Of a stretch of DNA of 28,837 bases, positions 817 to 17,167 are shown one piece after another; the stretch's first letter is position 1; every line of letters begins with the position of its first letter. The notes beneath the pieces are model-generated. The model saw only the letters and a program-made list of their open reading frames with translations, was not told the DNA's origin and ran no database searches. Source of the stretch: an uncultured Bacilli bacterium (GTDB lineage: Bacteria; Bacillota_I; Bacilli_A; ML615J-28; CAG-698); NCBI GenBank assembly GCA_947627195.1, contig CANQVC010000022.1, forward strand, positions 1-28,837, in the 5' to 3' direction. Made by a program: the position numbers and the translations under genes.

Positions 817-1646
817 ATAGCTATACTCCCAAAGACTTGTCCACCAATTATTAAGCCCATACCAACACCTAAAGCAACAGCAGTGGCAATTAATATTGCT
901 TCCATTAATCTAGTACTTCCTGACATATAATCACCATATAAAGTATCTCTAACTGCATTAGTAATAGCAACACCTGGAACAAGAGGCATCATTATACCAA
1001 TGATTGCGGAATCAACATCAATTGATTGACTTATAAATAAACCAAATAATTTTGTAAATGCTATAGCAAAAAAACTAGATATTATCGCACCAACAAATGT
1101 CAACATAAAATCATTATGAATAATTTTAGGTCCATAATAATAAATAGGGGCTAATATCATTCCTGAAAGCATTGATATTACACATTCATAAAATTTACCA
1201 CCAATAAGTAATGTGAAAAAAGTAGTTGCTAATATAATACCAATACTTCTTAACCAAATTGGATATTGAATTAAATTTTTAATTTTAACTAAAGAATGAT
1301 ATGCTTCATCTAATGTAATATTATTAGTACAATATAATCTAGAAACTGTATTAACAGCATCAACTCTATTTAAATTAGTTGATCTACTTGATACTCTTTT
1401 AGTAATCGATAATGCAGTAATATTTTCATCTGATAATGTTAAAGTTAAACCTGTTGGTAAAACAAAAGATTCAGCACAATCAAAATTTGATTTTCTTAAA
1501 ATTCTCCCTGTTGTATCTTCTACTCGATATGTTTCAGCTCCTGATGAAATCATAATTTCACCAGCTAATATAGCTGTATCCATCAATAAACGATATTCTT
1601 TTTCATTCGACATTTTCTTAGATGTTTCATCCATAAAATTCACCAT
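813..1646 (-). CDS. Threonine/serine exporter ThrE family protein (YjjP/DUF1212-like)
   Basis: 277 aa. The N-terminal 'ILAGEIMISSGAETYRVEDT' motif is typical of DUF1212/ThrE, followed by multiple TM helices. Translationally coupled to the DUF3815 partner. Confidence 0.65.
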   Translation of the reverse strand: MVNFMDETSKKMSNEKEYRLLMDTAILAGEIMISSGAETYRVEDTTGRILRKSNFDCAESFVLPTGLTLTLSDENITALSITKRVSSRSTNLNRVDAVNTVSRLYCTNNITLDEAYHSLVKIKNLIQYPIWLRSIGIILATTFFTLLIGGKFYECVISMLSGMILAPIYYYGPKIIHNDFMLTFVGAIISSFFAIAFTKLFGLFISQSIDVDSAIIGIMMPLVPGVAITNAVRDTLYGDYMSGSTRLMEAILIATAVALGVGMGLIIGGQVFGSIAI

Positions 1647-1695: not shown

Positions 1696-4317
1696 TTATA
1701 AATTATATTTTTTAATTCTATATGTTGATAAATATGATGATATAAAAGACAAAATTAAAATAATTAAATAAATAATTATTATTTTAATAAATGATAATTG
1801 ATAAAAAGGAAATACTAAATTAATATTATTTACTAATATTAATTTTAAAACAGATAAAAATATGAATGTTAAAAGAAGAGAAATTATATACGAAAATGTT
1901 GTTAGTAAAAAACATTGAACAATAAATGTCATTTGAATATAAATTGAAGTTGTTCCCATTGTTTTAAATAATTTAATTGCTTTATTTTTAAATTTAATCA
2001 TAAATGAATAATGCATAAATGTAATAAAAAATAGTACAATTAAAGCAATAATAACAATAATATAAAGATATTTTATTAAATTGTTTTTTGTTGTTTGAAA
2101 TGATAGATATGAATAAACATTTGCATCATTAATTTTATATTTAAATTTATTGATATCTTTTTCATTTTTCACAAGTAATTCTTCATTATCTAATATTTTT
2201 TCATTTAATGATATTATATCCATATCTTTATCACTATTTGATAATAAAACAATATAATTATTATATGTTTTAAATGATAAACCAAATAAATCATATAATT
2301 GATTAAATATTGATGAATTTATATATAAATCATCTATTGTTGGTGAATAATAATAACCAATGATAGTTACATCGATTGTTGAATATTCTTCATCATATTT
2401 ATTAATTTTATATTTTAATGGTATATCAATTTTAAAAAATTCTTCATAAAAATTACTAACAATATTTTTGTAAGAATGTTCTTCATCATATTCATTTATT
2501 TCATTTGTTAAAATATATGTATAATAATCTTTATAATTAAAAAAATCAGTTGCTACTTTATCATAATTTTCTTTCGCAAATTCTAATATTTCATTATTAA
2601 TTTTATCATCAATAAATCGTTTAGTAGATGAATTAATGGGAATTATAATACCATTTTTATAATTCATATTACGAAAATAGACTGTATCATCAGGGCTATT
2701 TATACTTGCTTGAATGTTATTTTTATTTAAAATTAGTCCATCATGAATTTTTAAACTAAATTCTCCATCAATTATGCGATATGAATTTTTCATTTTTTCT
2801 TTATAAAAATTCTTTTTTAAATATATTACATTATGTATTCCCTTATTAAATTCATCTTGAAATTCCTTAAATAATCTATTATTAGAATTATAGAACATTT
2901 TTTCATATGTTAATGTTTGATATCTATCAATATTAAGTTTTGTATCTATTATTCCAACAATACGTAAAGGAAATTGTTCACCTTTTTCTTCAAAATATAA
3001 TGTTTTACCTATTATATCATCATATGTCTTAATTTCATATTGTTTTGATTCATACATATAATTTCTTTTTTGATATTGAATAAATTGATATTTGGTAATA
3101 ACTACTTCATCATATGATATAGGAGCACTTCCATAAAGTTCAAAATTACAATTAGAAATTAAATTAGGATCATATTCTATAAATCCTCTATTAATTTCAT
3201 CATAAAATATTGAACCTAAATTTTTCATATAATCATTTTTAAAAAAATAATCTTCTATATCATTATCTCCTAAATTAGGATATGTATTAACAAAATAATT
3301 ATATACAGGAAAGCCTTGGGAACCAAATAAATTATCAATGAATTTGGCATCATTTTCACCCATTCCATAATTTTTATTTGATATAACATCATCTTGTATA
3401 TATTTCTTTTCAAAACTTACATATTGAATATTATTTTCATATAATCCTTTTAATAACATCTTTGTTTCATCTATATATAATACTGATATCGAAAATAACA
3501 TTAATATAAATGTTATTATTAATCCTAATCCTAAAAATATTAATCTCTTTAGTTTTACTTTTGTCCATCCTTTTAATATCTTGATGAAACTTTTTACTTT
3601 TATCTTTCCTTCTTCTTCTTCTTTTTCTTCTTTTCTTTCTTTTTCTTCTTTTATTATTTTATCTTCTTTTATCTTTCCTTCTTCTATTTCTATCTTTCTA
3701 TCTATATATTCTTCTATCTCTTCTATTTGATGACTTACTATTATTACTAATCTTTCTTTACTTATTTCTTTTAATTTCTCTATTACTTTCTTTGATGTCT
3801 TTTTATCTAATGCTCCAGTTACTTCATCACATAATATTATATTTGGCTCTTTTAATATTACTTCTGCTAATGCTACTCTTTGTTGCTGTCCTCCTGATAA
3901 TTCATTTATCTTTCTTCTTTCTATATCTTCTATCTCTAATTCTTTTAATACTTCTTTTATTTCTTCTTCTTTTCTCTCTTTCCTACTTATCTCTAAATAT
4001 ATTTCTATATTCTCTTTGACGTTTAATTCTTCTATTAAATTATATTTCTGATATACTATCCCTATCTCTTTTCTTCGATATTCACTTAACTCTTTCTCTT
4101 TTAATTTATTTATCTCTTTTCCATTTACTTTTATTTCTCCACTATCTATTCTTTCTATTCCACCTATTAAGTTTAATAATGTTGTCTTTCCACTTCCTGA
4201 TCTTCCTACTATTGCTACCATCCCTCTATCTGGTAACTTTATATTTATTTCTTTTATTGCTTCTACTTTTTCTTTCTTTGTTTGATATGTCTTTCTTACT
4301 TCTTTTAGTTCTATCAT
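1696..4317 (-). CDS. MacB-type (type VII) ABC transporter, fused ATP-binding domain + large ectodomain + FtsX permease (paralog 1)
   Basis: Walker A GRSGSGKTT, signature LSGGQQQR, Walker B ILCDE, E/K-rich linker, TM1. The ~500-aa ectodomain has the MacB periplasmic-core motif (IVGIIDT). C-terminal FtsX-like TM bundle. RBS GAGGTG before the ATG. Confidence 0.8.
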   Translation of the reverse strand: MIELKEVRKTYQTKKEKVEAIKEINIKLPDRGMVAIVGRSGSGKTTLLNLIGGIERIDSGEIKVNGKEINKLKEKELSEYRRKEIGIVYQKYNLIEELNVKENIEIYLEISRKERKEEEIKEVLKELEIEDIERRKINELSGGQQQRVALAEVILKEPNIILCDEVTGALDKKTSKKVIEKLKEISKERLVIIVSHQIEEIEEYIDRKIEIEEGKIKEDKIIKEEKERKEEKEEEEGKIKVKSFIKILKGWTKVKLKRLIFLGLGLIITFILMLFSISVLYIDETKMLLKGLYENNIQYVSFEKKYIQDDVISNKNYGMGENDAKFIDNLFGSQGFPVYNYFVNTYPNLGDNDIEDYFFKNDYMKNLGSIFYDEINRGFIEYDPNLISNCNFELYGSAPISYDEVVITKYQFIQYQKRNYMYESKQYEIKTYDDIIGKTLYFEEKGEQFPLRIVGIIDTKLNIDRYQTLTYEKMFYNSNNRLFKEFQDEFNKGIHNVIYLKKNFYKEKMKNSYRIIDGEFSLKIHDGLILNKNNIQASINSPDDTVYFRNMNYKNGIIIPINSSTKRFIDDKINNEILEFAKENYDKVATDFFNYKDYYTYILTNEINEYDEEHSYKNIVSNFYEEFFKIDIPLKYKINKYDEEYSTIDVTIIGYYYSPTIDDLYINSSIFNQLYDLFGLSFKTYNNYIVLLSNSDKDMDIISLNEKILDNEELLVKNEKDINKFKYKINDANVYSYLSFQTTKNNLIKYLYIIVIIALIVLFFITFMHYSFMIKFKNKAIKLFKTMGTTSIYIQMTFIVQCFLLTTFSYIISLLLTFIFLSVLKLILVNNINLVFPFYQLSFIKIIIIYLIILILSFISSYLSTYRIKKYNL

Positions 4318-5774: not shown

Positions 5775-8669
5775 TTAAATATCATATTTACTTAATATTT
5801 CACTTGGTGTTTTACGTAATAATGATAATATTGGAATCATTCCAAAGGTAATAGATATAAAATATAATAAAAATAATACAATTAATGATAACCATATTGG
5901 ATAATAAACAATAGTAGTTATGGCATTTAAACTAATATAACTATATCTTAATATTATTGTCATAATTAGCCATCCAATAAAAACACTACAAGTTGTTAAT
6001 ACAATATTATCAATTAAAAATTTGAATTTTAAATTCTTTTTAGTAACACCAATTGCTCGATACATTCCTACTTCTTTAATTTTACTCATTAATGATGAAT
6101 GCATAATGAAGTACATACAAATAGCCATCACAACATACATTATAATTAATATGATAAAATTACCAAGAATATCTTGAATTCGATCAATAATTAAAGAATT
6201 AAAAATATCTTTAGGAGTTGAATATTCTATATAATTCATATCAACATTTAAATTATTTTGCAAATATTGTGTTGTTTTATCAGGGTCTGTTGAATGTAAA
6301 GTGATATAACCATTAGTCATAGAATAATCAGTATCACTATCATATCTAAATATGAATAAATTACTAGTTTTTCCATAATTTTTAGAAATATTAATATAAT
6401 CTTCATCACTAACAACAATACAATAAGTATTAGGTGTATGATTATATGTGATAGCATTCATTTCATAATAATAAAAATTATATACATCATTATATAAAGA
6501 ACTTATTGATATTTTATAATCGACTTGAAGATCAACTGGATATGAACCATGTTCTTTCTTATAACAATATGAAACATAATAATCTAAAATATCTTTAAAT
6601 TTATTATCAAGAAATATGGCATAAAATTTGCCAACTTCATATCCTTTTCCAAAATATAATATACTAGCATATGTTTGATCACATAACATTGGTGAATTAA
6701 AAAATTGTTTAAAATATTCATCAAATTTATCATAATAATAATCATAATAATCAAAATGATGATATGAACAATATTTACCAAAATCAATAGATTCTTTAGA
6801 AATATCATATTGTTCTTTAAGATAATCACTTTCTTCTTTTTTAACAATATTATTTTTTTGTAAATATTCGTTATAATTATTATAAATAATTATTTTGTTT
6901 TTTAAATTCATTTCAACGTTCGATAACATTACATTATCATTAATTTTATCAGCATATGTTAAACCATTGGAAGAAAAGTAGGCAATTGCTTCACCTTCAT
7001 TTAATTCTATATTAAAATCAGATGCACGATAAACATAATTTAAACCTGTTTTTGTCAAATTATATTTTGCTAATGATGATGTTGGTTGATAAAATGCAGG
7101 TTCATCACTAGCAACAACAGCAGCAATTTCTAAATTCTTGCCATCAATAATATTTCTCGCTTCTTTTAAGCCTACTAAATCACGATATTCTTCTATAAAT
7201 GGTACATGACCATTTTTAATTAATATATCAGCTGATCTTTGGGATATAACAATTTGATAATCTTTTAAATCATCTATTTGTCCAGCTAATATTTTATTAT
7301 TTTTAACTAAATTTAAATCCAAAAATACTCCATGAGTTTCAATTTGAGTTGATGAATATGTTTCATAAAAATCAGTTACAAAACTTAAATAAGTATCACC
7401 ATATGGTTCTATATTACTAACCCAATAATCATCAATGCCAGAATTAGCATCATTTATTAAATCATCAAGATGATTGGATAAACTATCATTATAAACATTA
7501 AGATAAAATACATTATGATTATATTGTTTAGATGCTGTTTGTAAATCAGAAAAACCAATTGAAAACCAAGCTGTTAATAAAACAATTGTTATAGCAAATA
7601 AACATAAAGCAATTGTAAGAATTCTCCTTGACTTCTTTTTATTAAAAAATAATTCTTTTAAAGATTGAATTACAACATTTTTGAAATGAAATAATTTTCC
7701 GTATGATTGACCATTTATTTCAGGTAAATTTTCCATTGAATTATTATTAGTTGATTCAATTTGATTTGAAAAACTTTCATCTAGTAATTTTGTTTCACTA
7801 GTATCATCTATAATGGAAACTCTATTATCTTTTAATTCTAAATATAATTTGCCTTGATGAGATACAAGCCTTAGATGAACTGGTTCATCAATTTCATTAC
7901 CAAAATATTCAACTTTTAAATGATTTGTATTTTCTTCTTGTTTTGGCAAATCGCCTAAATAAATATCATGTTTACTTTTTGTTGAATAACGATTTTTAGG
8001 TGCATTATCTTTTGTTTGAATAATTTTTCCATCACTTATTTCTATTACTTGATCACAGAAATGATCAACTAAATTAGCTTCATGAGTAACTAATAATACT
8101 AAATGATTTTTAGATATTTCTTTTAACATATTCATAATCATCAAAGTATTAGTTTCATCTAAATTTCCTGTTGGTTCATCAGCTAAGATAATACTAGGGT
8201 TTTTCACAATAGCTCTGGCAATCGCAATTCTTTGTTGTTGTCCTCCTGATAATGTATCAGGCAAACGATTTTTAAAATGTTCCATTCCAACATTTTTTAA
8301 GGCAATTGTTACACTTTTATCAATTTCTTCATTATCAGTAACACCACATAATCTTAATGAATCAGCAACATTATCAAAGCAATTAACATTTTTATTTAAA
8401 TTGTAATTTTGAAAAATATAACCTATATAACGATTACGAATATAATCTTTGTCTGATTTGATATTTTGTCCATGAATGTAAAGTTCACCACTATAGAATG
8501 TATCTAATCCACCAATAACATTTAATAATGTCGTTTTTCCACAGCCACTTTTACCAAAAATAGCAACCATACCAACATCAGGTAAATCTAATGTTACATC
8601 ATTTATTACATGGATTTCATTATTTTTACCTTTATTAAAAAACTTTTGAACATTTTTTAATTGAATCAT
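5775..8669 (-). CDS. MacB-type fused ABC ATPase / FtsX permease with ~600-aa ectodomain
   Basis: Walker A GKSGCGKTT, LSGGQQQR, Walker B ILADE, TM1. Large Y/N/D-rich ectodomain, then C-terminal FtsX TM helices. 4-nt ATGA overlap with the upstream 8666..10936 gene. Confidence 0.8.
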   Translation of the reverse strand: MIQLKNVQKFFNKGKNNEIHVINDVTLDLPDVGMVAIFGKSGCGKTTLLNVIGGLDTFYSGELYIHGQNIKSDKDYIRNRYIGYIFQNYNLNKNVNCFDNVADSLRLCGVTDNEEIDKSVTIALKNVGMEHFKNRLPDTLSGGQQQRIAIARAIVKNPSIILADEPTGNLDETNTLMIMNMLKEISKNHLVLLVTHEANLVDHFCDQVIEISDGKIIQTKDNAPKNRYSTKSKHDIYLGDLPKQEENTNHLKVEYFGNEIDEPVHLRLVSHQGKLYLELKDNRVSIIDDTSETKLLDESFSNQIESTNNNSMENLPEINGQSYGKLFHFKNVVIQSLKELFFNKKKSRRILTIALCLFAITIVLLTAWFSIGFSDLQTASKQYNHNVFYLNVYNDSLSNHLDDLINDANSGIDDYWVSNIEPYGDTYLSFVTDFYETYSSTQIETHGVFLDLNLVKNNKILAGQIDDLKDYQIVISQRSADILIKNGHVPFIEEYRDLVGLKEARNIIDGKNLEIAAVVASDEPAFYQPTSSLAKYNLTKTGLNYVYRASDFNIELNEGEAIAYFSSNGLTYADKINDNVMLSNVEMNLKNKIIIYNNYNEYLQKNNIVKKEESDYLKEQYDISKESIDFGKYCSYHHFDYYDYYYDKFDEYFKQFFNSPMLCDQTYASILYFGKGYEVGKFYAIFLDNKFKDILDYYVSYCYKKEHGSYPVDLQVDYKISISSLYNDVYNFYYYEMNAITYNHTPNTYCIVVSDEDYINISKNYGKTSNLFIFRYDSDTDYSMTNGYITLHSTDPDKTTQYLQNNLNVDMNYIEYSTPKDIFNSLIIDRIQDILGNFIILIIMYVVMAICMYFIMHSSLMSKIKEVGMYRAIGVTKKNLKFKFLIDNIVLTTCSVFIGWLIMTIILRYSYISLNAITTIVYYPIWLSLIVLFLLYFISITFGMIPILSLLRKTPSEILSKYDI

Positions 8670-10936
8670 TCTATCTCTCCTTTCAAAGACTCTTTAACGG
8701 AGATTTTATATAATTTCTTTAATTGACGTGATGTAACATATAGTGATATTAAAATCATTCCTAAAATAATTAAAAAATAATCTTGGAAATATAAGAAAGT
8801 AAACTGATCATTTAATGCTGGAACAAAAATAACTAATATAGATGCAATAGCAAAGAAAATAAATGCTGGAATTAAACAAATAAACATACGGAAGAACATT
8901 CCCATTTTAATTTCATTAGATTTAATGCCCATAGATCTAAATATTGATATATCTGATTTAAATGCTAATAAAGATTTACTTGTACATAAATATACAAATA
9001 TTGCAATAAATAAGACAGCTAATATATATAATACATAAGCTATTAATTTAATAATGGAAACGCCTAAAACTTCTAAAGCATCATTAGGAACTTCTTCATA
9101 TGACAATGTAGCTATATATCCCATATCTTTTAATTTAGATATTTGTTTTTTTGCTTCATTATTATCTTTATAAAATATTGATGCTTGATTATAAATATCA
9201 GTCATATAATTATCCATAATGTCATTAATAATATCAATAGAAATTACAAAAATTGACATACCATTATTAATATTATCGCCATGTAAATTATTAGGCATTT
9301 CTGAATATAAATCATCAATAGACAATTCTTTTGAATATGTTAATGTTTTTACTTCTGCCTCTATATATCCATAATATCCATAATAATATTTTTCAAAAGT
9401 ATATGAAAGTTCAAGAGTAAAATTAGATATTTTCCCAGCTTCAAGATCTTCTTTAAATAATATATCTTCAATATATATTTCACCTTTTTGATCAGAAAAA
9501 GATATACATAAATTATCTGCTGAATATAAATCAATATTTCCATTATCATATATTGTAGCAGAAATATTAGTATAACTAGCATTTCTACTAATATATGTCA
9601 TAAAACTTAAAGCATTAAAACCATCATGTGTCAATAAAGCTTTACCTTGTTTATTATTATCATAAAAATATTTAACACCAACAATTCTAAAAACACTAAA
9701 GTCTTTTAAAATAATTTTTTCTTTTAATAATTGTTCTGTTGAATAAGAACTTCTTACACCAATAGGAATATATAAAAATACTTCATCTGCTTTTTCAGGA
9801 TATCTACCATAAATGTTTTCACCAAAACCTTCATCAATAACGATATCTAATGCAATTGGTCTTCCACGATTTGCATATTTATCTGGATTATATATATAAC
9901 AATAACTATCTTCGTCAAATAAAAAATCAAAAGAATAACATTTTTTAGCGTTTGTTTCTTGTTTAATCAATTCTAATTCTTCATTTGAAATTGGTTTTCT
10001 ATCATTATTAGTAATAACAACTCTTCCAGGTAATGATGTAAAATAAGTATAATTATAATATGCTTCATTTACCATTGTTTTTACTAATAATGTTACACCA
10101 TATAAAGCAAGAATGGCAATAATCATAAATGCACACATGAATGTTGAAAGCTTAGGTCTTGATGTAAAAATAGCTTTACCTAAAATCATGCCATTTTTGA
10201 TAGATGGTTTTGATGATACATGTTTATCTATTTTTTCTTCAACTAAATTAATATCATTATTTAATTTATGATCATATTCAACAGACCCATCAAAAATACG
10301 AATATGTCTTGTTGCATATTGTTCTACTTCATCAAAATTATGAGTTACAATAATTAATAATTTATCTTTTGATACTTCTTTTAAAAGTTTAATTATTTCT
10401 TTAGATGTTGCAGCATCTAAATTACCAGTTGGTTCATCAGCTAAGATAATTGGGCTATCTTTAGCTAATGCCCGAGCAATAACAGTTCTTTGTTTTTGTC
10501 CACCTGATAATTTGCTAGCTTTTTGATTAAGATGATCAATCATATCTACTCTTTTAAGTAATTCGATTGCTCTATTTTTTCTTTCTTTTCTATCTTTAAT
10601 ATGGAATAATGCTAGTTCAACATTTTGTAATACTGTACAACTTTCCATAATGTTGTAATCTTGGAATATGAATGATATATATTTTTCACGATATTCTTCC
10701 CATTCTTTTTGGGTATAATGTTGAGTTGGACAATCTTCAACAATCATTTCCCCTTCTTCATATGTATCCATTCCACTAATTACATTTAATAATGTCGACT
10801 TACCAGATCCTGATTTACCTGTTATAGCAACAAATTCTCCACGATCAAATGATAAATTAACACCTCTTATTCCAACAGTTACATTAGAATTTGATACATA
10901 TATTTTACCAATATCTTTTAATGTTAATAATGCCAT
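8666..10936 (-). CDS. MacB-type fused ABC ATPase / FtsX permease (operon partner of 5775..8669)
   Basis: Walker A GKSGSGKST, LSGGQKQR, Walker B ILADE, TM1, large ectodomain, C-terminal FtsX. RBS AGGAGG before the ATG. Confidence 0.8.
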   Translation of the reverse strand: MALLTLKDIGKIYVSNSNVTVGIRGVNLSFDRGEFVAITGKSGSGKSTLLNVISGMDTYEEGEMIVEDCPTQHYTQKEWEEYREKYISFIFQDYNIMESCTVLQNVELALFHIKDRKERKNRAIELLKRVDMIDHLNQKASKLSGGQKQRTVIARALAKDSPIILADEPTGNLDAATSKEIIKLLKEVSKDKLLIIVTHNFDEVEQYATRHIRIFDGSVEYDHKLNNDINLVEEKIDKHVSSKPSIKNGMILGKAIFTSRPKLSTFMCAFMIIAILALYGVTLLVKTMVNEAYYNYTYFTSLPGRVVITNNDRKPISNEELELIKQETNAKKCYSFDFLFDEDSYCYIYNPDKYANRGRPIALDIVIDEGFGENIYGRYPEKADEVFLYIPIGVRSSYSTEQLLKEKIILKDFSVFRIVGVKYFYDNNKQGKALLTHDGFNALSFMTYISRNASYTNISATIYDNGNIDLYSADNLCISFSDQKGEIYIEDILFKEDLEAGKISNFTLELSYTFEKYYYGYYGYIEAEVKTLTYSKELSIDDLYSEMPNNLHGDNINNGMSIFVISIDIINDIMDNYMTDIYNQASIFYKDNNEAKKQISKLKDMGYIATLSYEEVPNDALEVLGVSIIKLIAYVLYILAVLFIAIFVYLCTSKSLLAFKSDISIFRSMGIKSNEIKMGMFFRMFICLIPAFIFFAIASILVIFVPALNDQFTFLYFQDYFLIILGMILISLYVTSRQLKKLYKISVKESLKGEIE

Positions 10937-11742: not shown

Positions 11743-14382
11743 TTATAGTTTCTGTGATATATATTTTTTTAAAGCATGTCTTGAAAAATATATAATAAGA
11801 ATTGAACTAATTACTAAACTAATTGCATATAATATTAAACATTTTAAAAATGTTAAATTAAACCAACTTGTTGTTAATTGATATGCATTTTTAAAATATA
11901 ATTCTAAAGAAGCAATTAAAATTTCAATTATGATAAAAGAAACTAAAAATGGAATAGTTATAATTAATAAACCTGCAAATAACAAAAACAAAATTAATGA
12001 TTTCTTGTTCATACCAGTTCTTCTTAAATAATAAAGACTTTTTCTTTTGGAAAAAACTGTTTGATATATATCTATTAATAAAATTAACGATATAATAGAT
12101 GTGAAAATTGAAATGATTGTACATATTAATTTCCATGTATTTATAGATGATTTAACTCTAAAAAGGTTGGGTTCAATAATATATGCTTCTAAAAAATTAT
12201 AAGATGTGTATTCAATCAAATCTTTTTGTATAAAATATTCATCTATAGTTTTATTATCATATATTTTATTTTTGTGACTAAAGTCTTTATAAAAATGATA
12301 ATCTTTTTCTAAATCATATGATAAGGCTACATATATTCTATCATATATTTGTGAATTATAACGAACATTTTTATATATATCAACAATTTCTGAACAGGCA
12401 TATGCTGTATAAATATTACTATTAATATCGTCATTTATTTTATTACTTTTCTCAAGATAAAACCCAACAAGATTAACAGGTGTCTCAAAATTATAAAATG
12501 ATAAAAATGTTGATGTATCAGATTTTTTTAATTTAGTTTCAATAGCCTCTTTGAAGAGATTTGCATAAGAATATTCTGGTTGAAATTTGTTTATTTCATT
12601 TTGTTTAATATAATAAACATAATCATCTAAATTAGATTCCTTTGTTTCTTTTTCAAATTCGTCTTTTATACTATCCCATGAATCACTAACAACTTCCTTA
12701 ATGTATGATGAAAAGAAATCATATTTTAAAATAACTATAATGCCATTTTCTTTATTTTTATCATCGATATATACAATTTTTTCATTTGATAAATCATTTT
12801 CCGTTTTAACATTTTCAATAGAAATTTCTTTATGTGTACATTCACTAAAATTTTTAATTGTACATATTTTATCTAAGTAAGTCTCATCATCACTATCATT
12901 ATTTAATTTTATTGAAAATGTATTATCCCGATAGCCAAGACTAAAATCTTCATCAATTTTTTCAATTGCTGCAATATTAAAACCTTGATATGTAAAAAAA
13001 AGATGTTTAAAATCACTTGCCTTAGATGTATCAATAATTCCAACAATCTTGAATTTTGGTTGAAAAGTATTACTTCCTGCATTATAAATTAAATTAATAA
13101 TATCATTATAATTGCTAATATTTTTAATTTCATTATCATATTTATATCCGAATTTTTTATAAATATTAAACCAATAATCAGTAATTAGAATTTCATTATT
13201 TGCTTGAGGCATATGACCACAAATTAAATTCAATTCTAATCTATTCATTAATTCATCATTTATTTCAACAAATTCACCAAGATCTCCACCTTGTATATAC
13301 TTTAATGCTTCACTATGAAATTCATCTGGAATATTACAAAAGTGAGAAAAATAAGGAGAATTATAAACAGGTATAGTTTCCAATCCATAATTATCATGAA
13401 TGTATTTAACATCTATTGCTGTTAAAACATAAGCATCACGCCAATTACTTGGCTCAGGAAAATAACTTTTGCTTTCTATTTTAATATATTTAGAATTTTC
13501 AGCATATGCACTATTAAGTTCAATTTTTTTTTCATCTAAAAACGAAACAGATATAGTAAATAATAATAATAAAAATGTAATTATTAAACCAAAACCTAAA
13601 AATATTAATCTCTTAACTTTTACTGTTGTCCACCCTTTTAATATCCTTAGATAACTTCCTATCTTTGTCTTGGTTTCTTTTTCTTTATTAGATATTGTCG
13701 TTTTATTTTGTTCAGATTCTATTGTTCCTTGAACTTCTATTTTCCCTTCTTTTATTTCTATTATTATATCTGCATATTCTTTTATTTCTTCTTGATGACT
13801 TATTATTATTACTAATCTTTCTTTACTTATTTCTTTTAATTTATTAAATACATTCTCTCCTGATTCTTTATCTAATGCCCCTGTTACTTCATCACATAGT
13901 AATATCTTTGGTTTCTTTAATATTACTTCTGCTAAGGCTACTCTTTGTTGTTGTCCTCCTGATAATTCATTTACTTTTCTTTTCTTTAGTCCTTCTATTC
14001 CTAATTCTTTTAATATTTCTTCTATCTCTTCTTCTCTTCTCTTTATTCTACTTATTTCTAAATATGTCTTTATATTATCTATTACATTTATTTCTTCTAA
14101 TAATTGATATTTTTGATATACTATTCCTATCTCTTTTCTTCGATATTCACTTAACTCTTTTTCTTTTAATTCTTTTAAATTTTTATTATTTACTATTATT
14201 TCTCCCTCTTCAAAACAATCTATTCCTCCAATTAGATTTAATAGTGTTGTTTTTCCTACGCCAGATTTACCTACTATTGCTATCATTCCTTTATTAGGTA
14301 ATTCTATATTAACATCTTTTAATACTTCTATTTTTTCATTATTCGTTGTATAACTTTTACTTAAATGTCTTATTTCTATCAT
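11743..14382 (-). CDS. MacB-type fused ABC ATPase / FtsX permease, tandem paralog B (ATPase module identical to paralog A)
   Basis: Walker A GKSGVGKTT, LSGGQQQR, Walker B LLCDE, TM1, ~500-aa ectodomain (FKIVGIIDT motif), C-terminal FtsX. The track ORF begins at 14394 (MRCQM...). The real start is probably the ATG at 14382 (MIEIRHL...), matching paralog 1, with GAGGTG 6 nt upstream. Confidence 0.8.
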   Translation of the reverse strand: MIEIRHLSKSYTTNNEKIEVLKDVNIELPNKGMIAIVGKSGVGKTTLLNLIGGIDCFEEGEIIVNNKNLKELKEKELSEYRRKEIGIVYQKYQLLEEINVIDNIKTYLEISRIKRREEEIEEILKELGIEGLKKRKVNELSGGQQQRVALAEVILKKPKILLCDEVTGALDKESGENVFNKLKEISKERLVIIISHQEEIKEYADIIIEIKEGKIEVQGTIESEQNKTTISNKEKETKTKIGSYLRILKGWTTVKVKRLIFLGFGLIITFLLLLFTISVSFLDEKKIELNSAYAENSKYIKIESKSYFPEPSNWRDAYVLTAIDVKYIHDNYGLETIPVYNSPYFSHFCNIPDEFHSEALKYIQGGDLGEFVEINDELMNRLELNLICGHMPQANNEILITDYWFNIYKKFGYKYDNEIKNISNYNDIINLIYNAGSNTFQPKFKIVGIIDTSKASDFKHLFFTYQGFNIAAIEKIDEDFSLGYRDNTFSIKLNNDSDDETYLDKICTIKNFSECTHKEISIENVKTENDLSNEKIVYIDDKNKENGIIVILKYDFFSSYIKEVVSDSWDSIKDEFEKETKESNLDDYVYYIKQNEINKFQPEYSYANLFKEAIETKLKKSDTSTFLSFYNFETPVNLVGFYLEKSNKINDDINSNIYTAYACSEIVDIYKNVRYNSQIYDRIYVALSYDLEKDYHFYKDFSHKNKIYDNKTIDEYFIQKDLIEYTSYNFLEAYIIEPNLFRVKSSINTWKLICTIISIFTSIISLILLIDIYQTVFSKRKSLYYLRRTGMNKKSLILFLLFAGLLIITIPFLVSFIIIEILIASLELYFKNAYQLTTSWFNLTFLKCLILYAISLVISSILIIYFSRHALKKYISQKL

Positions 14383-14395
14383 TTGACACCTCATT
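13563..14395 (-). repeat. Direct repeat copy 1 (~835 bp, ~99.8% identical to 16286..17118): shared ATPase-module cassette
   Basis: The antisense ORFs 13875..14297 and 16598..17020 translate identically. The two genes have identical N-terminal 277 aa. Constant offset of 2723 bp. I saw 1-2 synonymous mismatches, and one flank shows decaying similarity. Confidence 0.85.
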
Positions 14396-17105
14396 GAATT
14401 GTTAATATATTTTGATAAGGCATAATTTTAAATGTATTTTTCAATGGTAAAATTATACTACATAAGCTAAAAATAGAAATTATAATCAAAATAAATAAAA
14501 ATTTTAAAGTAGTTAAATCAAAAATATTTAAATTAACCAAATAATGACTATATAAATAACTATTTACAAAATAAACAGCAATATAGAATAAAATTAAACT
14601 AAAAATAATAAAGAAAATTATAAATTTAAAGCATTGTATAATATACAATATAAAGAAATCTTTATGTGACATTCCCATACCTCTTAGTAATCCAATATCA
14701 TTAACTTTCTCATTAATTATTCCACTGAAACAATAGCTTATTAAAAACAAACTAGCAAAAATCATAAAAACAGCAATTATTGGCGAAACAATATGAACAA
14801 GTGAATATATAGGACTATCATCATTAAGATCTAATTGTTGTGGGGAAATCATCACATATCTAAAAGATTCTATACCGTTTGGCAATAAATCTTTATTTGT
14901 CTTTTCTTTTCTTAAATCTTTAATCATTTTATAATCTTTTTTATAATTATATGTTAAAGGGATGTTATATGAATATAATTCAAAAAATTTTTCATCATTA
15001 TTATCATATATCGTATTAAAAAGTTCTTTACTAACATAAATAGGATTTGAAGCATTTGCATTTCCAGTAAGGTAGAATCCAACAATTTTCATATTTAAAT
15101 CAGTATTACTTCTAGTTTTCATAATAAAAGTTTCATTCAATTTTTTATTCTTAATTACATCAATAAAAAAAGAATTAACAGAATGATCTAAATCACATAA
15201 ATTTAGATAATTGCTATAAACATAATTAGCATATCCTTGAGGTGAATCATTATTATTTCCAGCAATAATTCCTGCTCTACTTAAATAATTTGAACGAATA
15301 GATGGATAAACTGAAATAGCATATTTATAAATTTCATCTTTTACATCTTTAATTAAGTTTGAATCTTCGTTTTTAATTATAGGAATAATACATTCATTTT
15401 CTTTTAAATTAATATTACCTGTTTCTCTATTTTGGTTATCAATATAATTTACAAGCTCATTACAATATGGATAAAGAGCTATAAATTTACCGTAATGTCC
15501 TGTATATACATAATTATTATACATATTATCACATCCAAAATACATATATGAATTTTCTTTTGTATATTCTTCTATAAAATTTTCTTTTACATAAATAGCA
15601 TTATGCATATTTGATAAACTCTCAACATAAAGTTTATCAGTCAATCGATATTCAGGTAAATCTAAATCATAAGGTTTATTTTCTAACTCACCAATATCGA
15701 TATTAAATCTTTCATCAATATTTGTATCTATGATTCCAACAACTTTAAATGACTGCTTTGGGGCTAAAGAAATTGCACTAAAAGTAATAGTTTTTCCAAT
15801 AATATCTTGATAATCATTTATCTTAAATGGTTTACCATCAACATGCAACGTTTCATACTTAATTGCATAAAAAGTATATTTTGTAATAACAATTTCTTCA
15901 TTTGTTTTAGGTAAAGTTCCATAAACTAAATGAAACTTACTTGATGTTAAAAATTCATCATTAAGCTCAATAAATTCTATTCCATCCCATAAATCAGAAG
16001 GTAATGTGAAAGTAGAAATAATATTGTTTAAAAATGTTTTATCATGAACAATTGAACTACAATTTCCTATTCTTAATAATCTTTGATTAGTTCCATTAAT
16101 TTTATATTTATCATTAATATATTTAACATCATCCATTGACAAACCAATTTCACATGATTCTGGGTCACGCCATTTACCATCAATCTTATATTCTTTACCT
16201 AATGTTAAATAAGTTGTATTTGTTCTATATAAGTCTTTGAGTAAAAGTTTTGTTTCATCTAAAAAAGACGAAGATATAGTAAACAATAATAATAAAAATG
16301 TAATTATTAAACCAAAACCTAAAAATATTAATCTCTTAACTTTTACTGTTGTCCATCCTTTTAATATCCTTAGATAACTTCCTATCTTTGTCTTGGTTTC
16401 TTTTTCTTTATTAGATATTGTCGTTTTATTTTGTTCAGATTCTATTGTTCCTTGAACTTCTATTTTCCCTTCTTTTATTTCTATTATTATATCTGCATAT
16501 TCTTTTATTTCTTCTTGATGACTTATTATTATTACTAATCTTTCTTTACTTATTTCTTTTAATTTATTAAATACATTCTCTCCTGATTCTTTATCTAATG
16601 CCCCTGTTACTTCATCACATAGTAATATCTTTGGTTTCTTTAATATTACTTCTGCTAAGGCTACTCTTTGTTGTTGTCCTCCTGATAATTCATTTACTTT
16701 TCTTTTCTTTAGTCCTTCTATTCCTAATTCTTTTAATATTTCTTCTATCTCTTCTTCTCTTCTCTTTATTCTACTTATTTCTAAATATGTCTTTATATTA
16801 TCTATTACATTTATTTCTTCTAATAATTGATATTTTTGATATACTATTCCTATCTCTTTTCTTCGATATTCACTTAACTCTTTTTCTTTTAATTCTTTTA
16901 AATTTTTATTATTTACTATTATTTCTCCCTCTTCAAAACAATCTATTCCTCCAATTAGATTTAATAGTGTTGTTTTTCCTACGCCAGATTTACCTACTAT
17001 TGCTATCATTCCTTTATTAGGTAATTCTATATTAACATCTTTTAATACTTCTATTTTTTCATTATTCGTTGTATAACTTTTACTTAAATGTCTTATTTCT
17101 ATCAT
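14391..17105 (-). CDS. MacB-type fused ABC ATPase / FtsX permease, tandem paralog A
   Basis: Same ATPase module as paralog B. The juxtamembrane ectodomain resembles paralog 1 (LDETKLLLKDLY vs IDETKMLLKGLY). C-terminal FtsX. Its TGA stop (14391-93) lies inside the RBS/ATGA of paralog B. Likely start ATG at 17105. Confidence 0.8.
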   Translation of the reverse strand: MIEIRHLSKSYTTNNEKIEVLKDVNIELPNKGMIAIVGKSGVGKTTLLNLIGGIDCFEEGEIIVNNKNLKELKEKELSEYRRKEIGIVYQKYQLLEEINVIDNIKTYLEISRIKRREEEIEEILKELGIEGLKKRKVNELSGGQQQRVALAEVILKKPKILLCDEVTGALDKESGENVFNKLKEISKERLVIIISHQEEIKEYADIIIEIKEGKIEVQGTIESEQNKTTISNKEKETKTKIGSYLRILKGWTTVKVKRLIFLGFGLIITFLLLLFTISSSFLDETKLLLKDLYRTNTTYLTLGKEYKIDGKWRDPESCEIGLSMDDVKYINDKYKINGTNQRLLRIGNCSSIVHDKTFLNNIISTFTLPSDLWDGIEFIELNDEFLTSSKFHLVYGTLPKTNEEIVITKYTFYAIKYETLHVDGKPFKINDYQDIIGKTITFSAISLAPKQSFKVVGIIDTNIDERFNIDIGELENKPYDLDLPEYRLTDKLYVESLSNMHNAIYVKENFIEEYTKENSYMYFGCDNMYNNYVYTGHYGKFIALYPYCNELVNYIDNQNRETGNINLKENECIIPIIKNEDSNLIKDVKDEIYKYAISVYPSIRSNYLSRAGIIAGNNNDSPQGYANYVYSNYLNLCDLDHSVNSFFIDVIKNKKLNETFIMKTRSNTDLNMKIVGFYLTGNANASNPIYVSKELFNTIYDNNDEKFFELYSYNIPLTYNYKKDYKMIKDLRKEKTNKDLLPNGIESFRYVMISPQQLDLNDDSPIYSLVHIVSPIIAVFMIFASLFLISYCFSGIINEKVNDIGLLRGMGMSHKDFFILYIIQCFKFIIFFIIFSLILFYIAVYFVNSYLYSHYLVNLNIFDLTTLKFLFILIIISIFSLCSIILPLKNTFKIMPYQNILTIQ

Positions 17106-17118
17106 TTGACACCTCATT
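16286..17118 (-). repeat. Direct repeat copy 2 (partner of 13563..14395)
   Basis: See copy 1. Identity ends abruptly just upstream of the RBS (17118) and decays gradually into the ectodomain-coding side. Confidence 0.85.
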
Positions 17119-17122
17119 TTTA

Positions 17123-17160
17123 AAAAATAGAGGTAAATAAAGGAAAATATTTACCTCTAT
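17123..17160 (-). terminator. Rho-independent terminator after the Big_2 surface protein gene
   Basis: Perfect 12-bp stem UAGAGGUAAAUA/UAUUUACCUCUA with an 8-nt loop, followed by UUUUUUAAAAA. It lies ~10 nt before the RBS of ABC paralog A. Confidence 0.55.
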
Positions 17161-17167
17161 TATTAAT

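Follow-up and report, generated by a model that had tools for sequence, protein, structure and literature searches.

How can two neighbouring genes be practically identical over their front part and only distantly related over the remainder? This question is raised by a 28,837-nt contig of an uncultured gut member of the Bacilli (GCA_947627195.1, contig CANQVC010000022.1), which was analyzed over its full length and is referred to as the window, and in particular by two adjacent genes, here designated gA and gB, each of which encodes an ATP-binding cassette (ABC) ATPase fused to an FtsX-type permease. The answer favored by the data is that recent and repeated gene conversion most probably overwrote the front module of one of these two old tandem paralogues with that of the other, leaving their gene bodies divergent.

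The genes gA (11743..14382, 879 aa, open reading frame (ORF) opening at 14394) and gB (14391..17105, 904 aa, ORF opening at 17117) are both located on the minus strand, as are all other window features given below with coordinates unless stated otherwise. Direct pairwise comparison of 13562..14395 in gA (repeat copy R_A) with 16285..17118 in gB (repeat copy R_B), at a constant offset of 2723 nt, showed that 833 of 834 nucleotides are identical. Each copy comprises the ribosome-binding site (RBS), the ATPase or nucleotide-binding domain, a linker and the first transmembrane helix (TM1). An earlier reading of this DNA, made from the sequence only, had recognized the direct repeat and its offset, both of which are borne out, although its coordinates are one base off; it had also counted one or two synonymous differences, of which one lies within the block (13633/16356, GGG/GGA, Gly) while the other (13561, TTA/TTG, Leu) is the first base beyond it and is followed by further differences at 13546-13548 and 13543. 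The longest perfect run spans 762 nt (13634..14395). At 78% nucleotide identity, the level found between the ATPases of gA and a third paralogue, g1, 762 consecutive matches have a probability of ~1e-82, and chance is thus excluded. At the protein level the identity covers 278 residues from the likely start codon, or 282 from the first ATG, the previous estimate having been ~277.

The edges of the block are sharp. On the 5' side the shared sequence opens as A-ATGAGGTGTCAA-ATG, its limit being a single base ahead of the RBS-containing ATGAGGTG, and the identity takes in the non-coding bases preceding the start codon. It drops to background straight after 14395/17118 (i.e., at 14396/17119), with the GAGGTG Shine-Dalgarno motif of gA (14387..14392; gB twin at 17110..17115) inside the block, which substantiates the claim that identity ends just 5' of the RBS. 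On the 3' side, identity reaches the level of unaligned DNA of the same composition within ~60 nt of the block edge, the background at this offset being ~30-40% in DNA of 23% G+C. The alignment therefore displays a sharply bounded block, and no uniform identity of ~80% along the whole genes. The sequence-only reading had additionally interpreted a gradual decay at the 3' side as a footprint of conversion, an argument that could not be upheld: the zone of ~85% identity measures just 33 nt (13529..13561; twin 16252..16284), it codes for an ISxSFLDExK segment that is kept in all three paralogues (24/30 matches between gA and gB versus 21/30 between g1 and gB in corresponding 30-nt windows), and its alleles are reshuffled among strains. 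The apparent gradient thus reflects mostly ordinary conservation, in addition to tract ends that vary between strains. Two plus-strand ORFs of 140 aa within the repeat (13875..14297 and 16598..17020) were rejected as genes, being antisense shadows of the block.

Regarding the start codons, the second ATG of each ORF (14382 and 17105) is the likely true start of gA and gB, because g1 carries GTGAGGTGATAAC-ATG at the same place and because the same gene call is found in public assemblies. The exact 879-aa product of gA from the second ATG is present in other assemblies, and the corresponding form of gB is on record as P0128, while exact-protein look-ups of gA and gB read from the first ATG returned no match. 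The notion that gB is absent from all other data, based on the lack of a self-match, was rejected since gB is filed under a 119-aa fragment that acts as cluster representative; furthermore, most genes truncated at a contig end are missing from the stored records, so that a lack of gB fragments is uninformative. The two genes are tightly packed, as the gB stop codon (TGA, 14391..14393) falls within the ATGAGGTG that holds the RBS of gA.

Both products are predicted to be ABC half-transporters of the MacB type (type VII) whose ectodomain (ECD) is unusually large, an assignment based on sequence for the two proteins and, for gB, also on an AlphaFold2 (AF2) model. The Walker A, Q-loop, signature, Walker B and H-loop motifs are intact (readable as GKSGVGKTT, LSGGQQQR, ILLCDEVTG and SHQ), and Pfam ABC_tran matches the two proteins with E-values of 5e-33 (gA) and 7e-33 (gB). 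The ATPase is closest to the models of the lactococcin-972 exporter, LolD, MacB, DevA and FtsE, while no NCBIfam model reaches its curated cut-off. In both proteins hydropathy places TM1 at residues 254-284, and after a hydrophilic stretch of ~470 residues three more hydrophobic segments follow at the C-terminus, which makes four in all, a layout with which the secondary structure of the gB model agrees. The FtsX profile PF02687 (cut-off 25.5 bits) scores 31.9 bits for gB, 30.6 for g1 and 44.9 for a further family member, g2, whereas gA and another member, g3, yielded no match at E<=0.01; the gA C-terminus is too divergent for an FtsX score, yet aligns with those of gB and g1, and its membrane domain and coupling-helix motif are degenerate where those of gB are canonical. 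A profile search of PDB sequences with the family returned MacB as the best hit (5lil, E 1e-88). The fold comparison, for which the gB model was used (mean predicted local distance difference test score 76), likewise returned MacB as the best Foldseek hit (5lil_A, E 1.4e-28; 5nik_J, TM-score on the target 0.68). No Pfam MacB_PCD match was obtained in the ECD; at the level of secondary-structure elements, to which the comparison extended, the gB model has strand-helix elements beside both stalk helices (residues 299-334 and 712-752) that would be compatible with a Porter subdomain.

The remainders of the two proteins provide the contrast that dates the block. The ECDs of gA (~465 aa, 12139..13530, delimited by hydropathy) and gB (~480 aa, 14817..16256, delimited by hydropathy and the AF2 model) had been described as unrelated and as diverging completely, which is incorrect: past residue 285 the two proteins are collinear over ~580 residues with 24% identity (E 1.4e-17), and g1 is a third member whose remainder is equidistant, with 24-25% identity to gA and to gB. 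Nei-Gojobori counts of synonymous (pS) and nonsynonymous (pN) differences between gA and gB gave a pS of 0 and a pN of 0 over 220 ATPase codons, as compared to 0.515 and 0.468 in the ECD and 0.63 and 0.48 in the C-terminal membrane domain, the latter two pS values being saturated for a genome of 23% G+C. In the ATPases of g1 and gA, pS is 0.34 and pN 0.16. The saturated synonymous sites and the homology of the remainders outside the block indicate that the gene bodies are old and that the front module alone is young. Since selection at the protein level is unable to erase synonymous differences, a pS of 0 points to recombination rather than selection, which supports the earlier suggestion of a recent conversion tract as opposed to an ancient duplication. 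The ECD evolves very fast: a search with that of gB against 1.84 billion cluster representatives retrieved just 20 proteins at E<=1e-3, the best at 32% identity, and no relative turned up among the GTDB species representatives. A presence/absence polymorphism of 105 nt (35 aa) was also observed between strains in the gA ECD (window 12867..12881, minus strand; contig L002, described below, 1529..1620), bordered by a 15-nt direct repeat, CTTATTTAGATAAAA, with the window carrying the short allele.

The proposed sequence of events is that homologous, non-reciprocal recombination replaced the RBS-ATPase-linker-TM1 module of one gene by a copy of the other's, presumably through RecA-dependent repair that used the neighbouring copy as template, and that such copying took place more than once; both the pathway and its direction are inferred. 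The 5' limit of the tract corresponds to the end of paralogy, where the end of gB lies upstream of one copy and a terminator upstream of the other, and the 3' limit corresponds to the outer end of TM1, beyond which the ECD-coding DNA is too divergent for heteroduplex formation. In the tuf genes of Salmonella the conversion walk has been reported to average ~500 nt in each direction (PMC5485169), and a tract of ~0.8 kb thus fits measured bacterial conversion tracts and is within reach of a single conversion event.

Evidence that copying occurred repeatedly is provided by five short SPAdes contigs (L001, L002, L003, L091 and L092), reached by exact-protein look-ups, with a coverage of 1.3-2.3x and derived from ENA samples with neighbouring accession numbers. 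The alleles at the 3' edge were read at repeat positions 835, 848-853 and 867, each haplotype being phased within 32 nt. The window carries A-GTT-A continuing into gA and G-TCG-C continuing into gB, while L002 carries G-TCG-A continuing into gA and L091 carries A-TCG-C continuing into gB. The stretches shared at the switch points are only 11-13 nt long, too short for a chimera of a de Bruijn graph, and these haplotypes are therefore considered real; to account for all four, the copies must have exchanged sequence at least twice more, with end points that differ. Furthermore, both copies in the window have C and A at repeat positions 136 and 466, respectively, where A and G are found both in L091, in a gB-linked copy, and in L092, in a gA-linked copy, a pattern that would fit concerted evolution, in which variants are common to both copies within a lineage (compare PMC6053082 and PMC8022953).

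The same contigs bear on the concern, raised previously, that the repeat might be an assembly artefact, i.e., that it was collapsed or re-used, or that gB was misthreaded between the upstream Big_2 gene and gA, the locus really holding one copy or two clearly different ones. Such an artefact would be compatible with the fact that the window is an entire contig of the type found in metagenome-assembled genomes (MAGs), with the position of all inter-copy differences within 85 nt of unique sequence, as if interior variants had been merged, and with L001 and L003, which run from Big_2 through the repeat into gA and lack gB. However, the junction from Big_2 through the repeat into gB and that from gB into the repeat were recovered independently in two samples: L091 contains the 3' end of Big_2, the terminator, the repeat and then gB-specific sequence, and L092 the last 57 nt of gB followed by the repeat. 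L002, whose first base is precisely the first one shared by the copies, as would be the case where an assembly graph branches, passes through the repeat into gA. Each junction of the order Big_2-repeat-gB-repeat-gA was thus found independently, which mostly answers the concern. In addition, the passage from gB to gA is a sensible gene boundary, with the TGA within the RBS motif and with similar coupling of the g3/g2 pair in the same array, while a collapse would still need very similar copies, whereas the flanks are unalignable. An artefact is accordingly regarded as very unlikely. An exact search of JGI metagenomes with the start of the repeat returned no match.

A gain or loss of a cassette has also to be weighed against conversion. 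Starting from an ancestral arrangement of Big_2, one repeat and gA, a 2723-nt unit composed of the gB body and one repeat would have entered through the repeat, by a Campbell-like event or by unequal exchange with another strain. Such an entry would yield two identical repeats at once, and the reverse crossover would delete the unit again. The contigs L001 (9.5 kb) and L003 (2.7 kb), in which Big_2, terminator and a single repeat are joined straight to the gA body, would have exactly the structure expected from recombination between the two copies; their flanks are 99.97-100% identical to the window, and the implied crossovers differ, L001 having the gA allele at repeat position 763 and L003 the gB allele at 763 with the gA allele at 835. 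The near absence of relatives of the gB ECD counts in favor of this reading as well. Against this stand frame-breaking deletions of 1-83 nt in all four of L001, L003, L091 and L092, which at ~2x point to noisy libraries or assemblies, so that structural variants seen only there are not to be trusted; two deletion junctions inspected in L001 lie on microhomologies of 4-5 nt, and the junctions lacking gB may be shortcuts of the assembler through an unresolved repeat. The reshuffled edge haplotypes need exchange between two resident copies in any case, and the window ORFs that were scanned contain no gene for an integrase or recombinase and no other mobile-element gene. Entry of the unit in this manner is consequently deemed quite unlikely as the origin of the pair, and the simultaneous appearance of both repeats with later deletion by the reverse crossover has the same small likelihood. 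The proposal that the repeat is a plausible substrate for deletion is nonetheless supported by the two contigs that lack gB; recombinant junctions of the anticipated kind are present in both, but in low-coverage, error-ridden contigs that possibly took shortcuts. The 83-nt deletion in L001, which lies within g3, is probably technical.

Two further explanations invoke selection. According to the one, identity is kept because a gA/gB heterodimer needs matched ATPases, as a fused equivalent of LolC and LolE sharing LolD, conversion being merely the means. This would be consistent with the gB stop within the RBS of gA, with the identical translation-initiation regions of both genes, with the presence of a second coupled pair in the array, with a degenerate gA and a canonical gB membrane domain, which suggest asymmetric roles, and with the view that permeases of type VII systems can pair either with themselves or, as in LolCE, with a different partner (PMC5985334). 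A gA/gB heterodimer is plausible, with LolCDE as its closest analogue. However, the ATPases of the equally tightly coupled g3 and g2 are only 39% identical, so pairing does not demand identical motors; the equivalent MACPF-ABC-Big_2 module of relatives makes do with one ABC gene, from which it is evident that homodimers work in the family; and neutral conversion by itself explains the data. Selection for matched motors is thus considered unlikely as the cause of the identity. The other explanation, an old duplication whose ATPases were held identical by strong purifying selection and codon bias, can point to the ATPase as the most conserved part of the family (69% aa identity between g1 and gA, against 24% for the rest), but was refuted by the synonymous-site contrast: 0 differences in 220 ATPase codons, in a domain where g1 and gA have a pS of 0.34 and a pN of 0.16, together with identity that reaches into non-coding bases ahead of the start codon, leave it a practically negligible probability.

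Gene conversion between resident copies remains the favored reading, though several points weigh against it or narrow it. With g1 equidistant from both genes, the donor is indistinguishable from the recipient, and strict conversion, in which the donor is unchanged, is inseparable from, e.g., unequal crossing-over followed by re-duplication. Should the window stem from short reads, the assembler could have merged interior differences between the two copies, and the true identity could be somewhat below 99.9%; with the differences confined to the 85 nt next to unique sequence, this figure is to be taken as an upper bound. The sharing of alleles at positions 136 and 466 rests on contigs of 1.3-2x from different samples and its interior phasing is weak. 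Finally, the tuf model expects tracts that reach the very end of homology to abort (PMC5485169), and the last bases at the 5' edge may accordingly be identical for an older reason.

The mechanism is already known and no new one is invoked, but it operates here in an uncharacterised transporter family. In tufA/tufB of Salmonella and in rRNA operons, non-reciprocal homologous exchange likewise holds part of two paralogues identical, and the gA/gB tract of ~0.8 kb is within the range measured for tuf (PMC5485169). In gA and gB, by contrast, homogenisation is confined to one module of a multidomain gene, the remainder being too divergent to recombine; moreover, the copies are adjacent direct repeats, unlike those of tuf and rRNA, and the same substrate can therefore delete the intervening gene body. 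Shufflons, diversity-generating retroelements and antigenic variation from silent cassettes depend on a dedicated recombinase or reverse transcriptase, on specific recombination sites and on silent donor cassettes; no gene for such an enzyme was found among the ORFs scanned, and in the present case the repeated part is the conserved module rather than the variable one, with both genes complete. In the literature searched, no account was encountered of ABC paralogues in which conversion is restricted to the ATPase, and this is no proof of novelty.

With regard to transporters, gA and gB share with MacB of the MacAB-TolC system an N-terminal fused ATPase, four transmembrane helices and a large ECD between TM1 and TM2, but this ECD measures ~470 aa against ~200 in MacB, and no gene for a MacA/HlyD-family adaptor or TolC was detected among the window ORFs scanned with Pfam. 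LolCDE combines two paralogous FtsX-type permeases with different ECDs and two identical ATPases, an arrangement that a gA/gB heterodimer would match exactly. The Lol ATPase is a separate single gene, and no homogenisation is needed there, whereas in gA and gB it is fused to each permease. Bacilli are, as their taxonomy implies, a group without an outer membrane, and the sorting of lipoproteins to that membrane by LolCDE is irrelevant to the window organism. Spr0694-0695 of S. pneumoniae, YknYZ, BceAB, FtsEX-PcsB and YtrEF are type VII machines of Firmicutes that target antimicrobial peptides or partners outside the cytoplasm, and their ATPases are structurally close to those of gA and gB. These Gram-positive MacB-like and FtsX-type systems, however, consist of separate ATPase and permease polypeptides with ECDs much smaller than those of gA and gB, and to our knowledge none of them is linked to MACPF and Big_2 genes.

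Such a link is apparent upstream of gB, where an operon (17168..20426) consists of a consensus-type promoter (20399..20426), a MACPF-like gene (18837..20354) and a gene for a Big_2 surface protein (17168..18751). The latter is followed by an intrinsic terminator with a 14-bp hairpin and U6 (17126..17161; -17.4 kcal/mol, z -3.5), which ends 4 nt before the repeat. Since Rfam returned no match in the window, this hairpin is taken as a plain terminator and not as a known leader. With a strong terminator 4 nt from the RBS motif of gB and no room for a promoter, gB and gA need either read-through or a promoter inside Big_2, and we infer that both are expressed via terminator read-through and translational coupling of gA to gB. 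The frame of the MACPF-like gene is broken by an in-frame TGA (20073..20075) into ORFs of 93 and 378 aa, and the same two gene calls occur in L001, from another sample. Recoding of TGA as Trp was rejected, as Trp is specified by TGG in 53 cases and 5 of 19 ORFs terminate with TGA; with TGA thus serving as a stop in this genome and TGG as the Trp codon, the gene is probably a nonsense allele or a pseudogene.

The neighbourhoods of MACPF, ABC and Big_2 genes were compared in locus L093 (8489..14350) and loci L096-L101. In ‘Staphylococcus sp. CAG:324’ and several gut metagenome contigs the order is MACPF-ABC-Big_2, with a single fused ABC/FtsX gene and, in the CAG:324 locus, spacers of 10-13 nt, and the module proteins of these relatives are 40-43% (Big_2) and 26-29% (MACPF) identical to those of the window. 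Unlike in these relatives, the ABC pair of the window stands after Big_2, in the order MACPF, Big_2, terminator, gB, gA. Other type VII machines act on extracytoplasmic partners (PMC5985334), and by analogy the ECD would most likely engage the secreted MACPF and Big_2 proteins or their targets. Neither linkage of MACPF and FtsX genes nor a MACPF-ABC-Big_2 module was found described in the literature searched, again without this being proof of novelty. As to the host, its genome of ~23% G+C belongs to the gut Bacilli, and its GlpK is at best 62-64% identical to proteins of GTDB species representatives, namely of gut MAGs labelled uncultured Staphylococcaceae or Bacilli, whose loci contained no member of the transporter family; the placement by GlpK is accordingly a loose one.

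In total, five fused ABC/FtsX genes are present in the window, i.e., g1, the coupled pair g3/g2 and the pair gB/gA. The gene g1 (1696..4317) belongs to the same subfamily as gA and gB but was not converted, its ATPase being 69% identical to both in amino acids and 78% in nucleotides, and the rest 24-25%. The genes g3 (8666..10936) and g2 (5775..8669) together form a second translationally coupled pair (5775..10936), with an ATGA overlap, of a more distant subfamily. A mosaic of the same type as that of the window was observed in another uncultured genome (GCA_947588925.1, locus L084, 7353..12517), where adjacent family members are ~94-95% identical in the DNA of the ATPase and of the C-terminal membrane domain and ~60-70% in that of the ECD, with synonymous divergence (dS) of 0.19, 0.14 and 0.86, respectively; it would represent either an earlier stage or homogenisation of both ends.

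The pair gA/gB thus offers a natural case of module-limited concerted evolution, in which the cytoplasmic motor stays the same in both proteins and the exposed domain diverges so far that its homology is barely detectable. The pair also draws attention to an uncharacterised family, in which fused MacB-like proteins of gut Bacilli have ECDs of ~470 aa and genetic links to MACPF and Big_2 proteins, and which could offer a way to study partner specificity of type VII ‘mechanotransmission’ machines. A bolder idea, to which we give little credence at present, is that the ATPase-TM1 module acts as a portable homology handle by which bodies of ECD and membrane domain are gained, lost or swapped between strains by homologous recombination. 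If so, strains of uncultured gut Bacilli would differ in the surface-exposed portion of an envelope module, MACPF/MacB-like/Big_2, that has not been described so far, and where two bodies occur together they might form a heterodimer of fused subunits with the same motor on each, a type VII ABC arrangement that the MacB-family review does not list (PMC5985334). For annotators and builders of MAGs the locus serves as a warning that near-exact repeats of ~0.8 kb break or short-circuit short-read assemblies.

Two minor observations were made in addition. In a Clostridia species, orthologous loci (L085 and L088) that are otherwise 80-88% identical share a stretch of ~900 nt with 100% identity (L085 9724..10620), which spans the end of the upstream gene and the ATPase of a fused ABC/FtsX gene and looks like a recent recombination import between strains. 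Elsewhere in the window, an AbiLi-like AAA_21 ATPase gene (PADLOC AbiLi, E 9e-43) overlaps an RloB-like gene at 22015..23818 (minus strand), and this AbiL-type anti-phage pair is located between glpK and an NMT1-type ABC importer operon.

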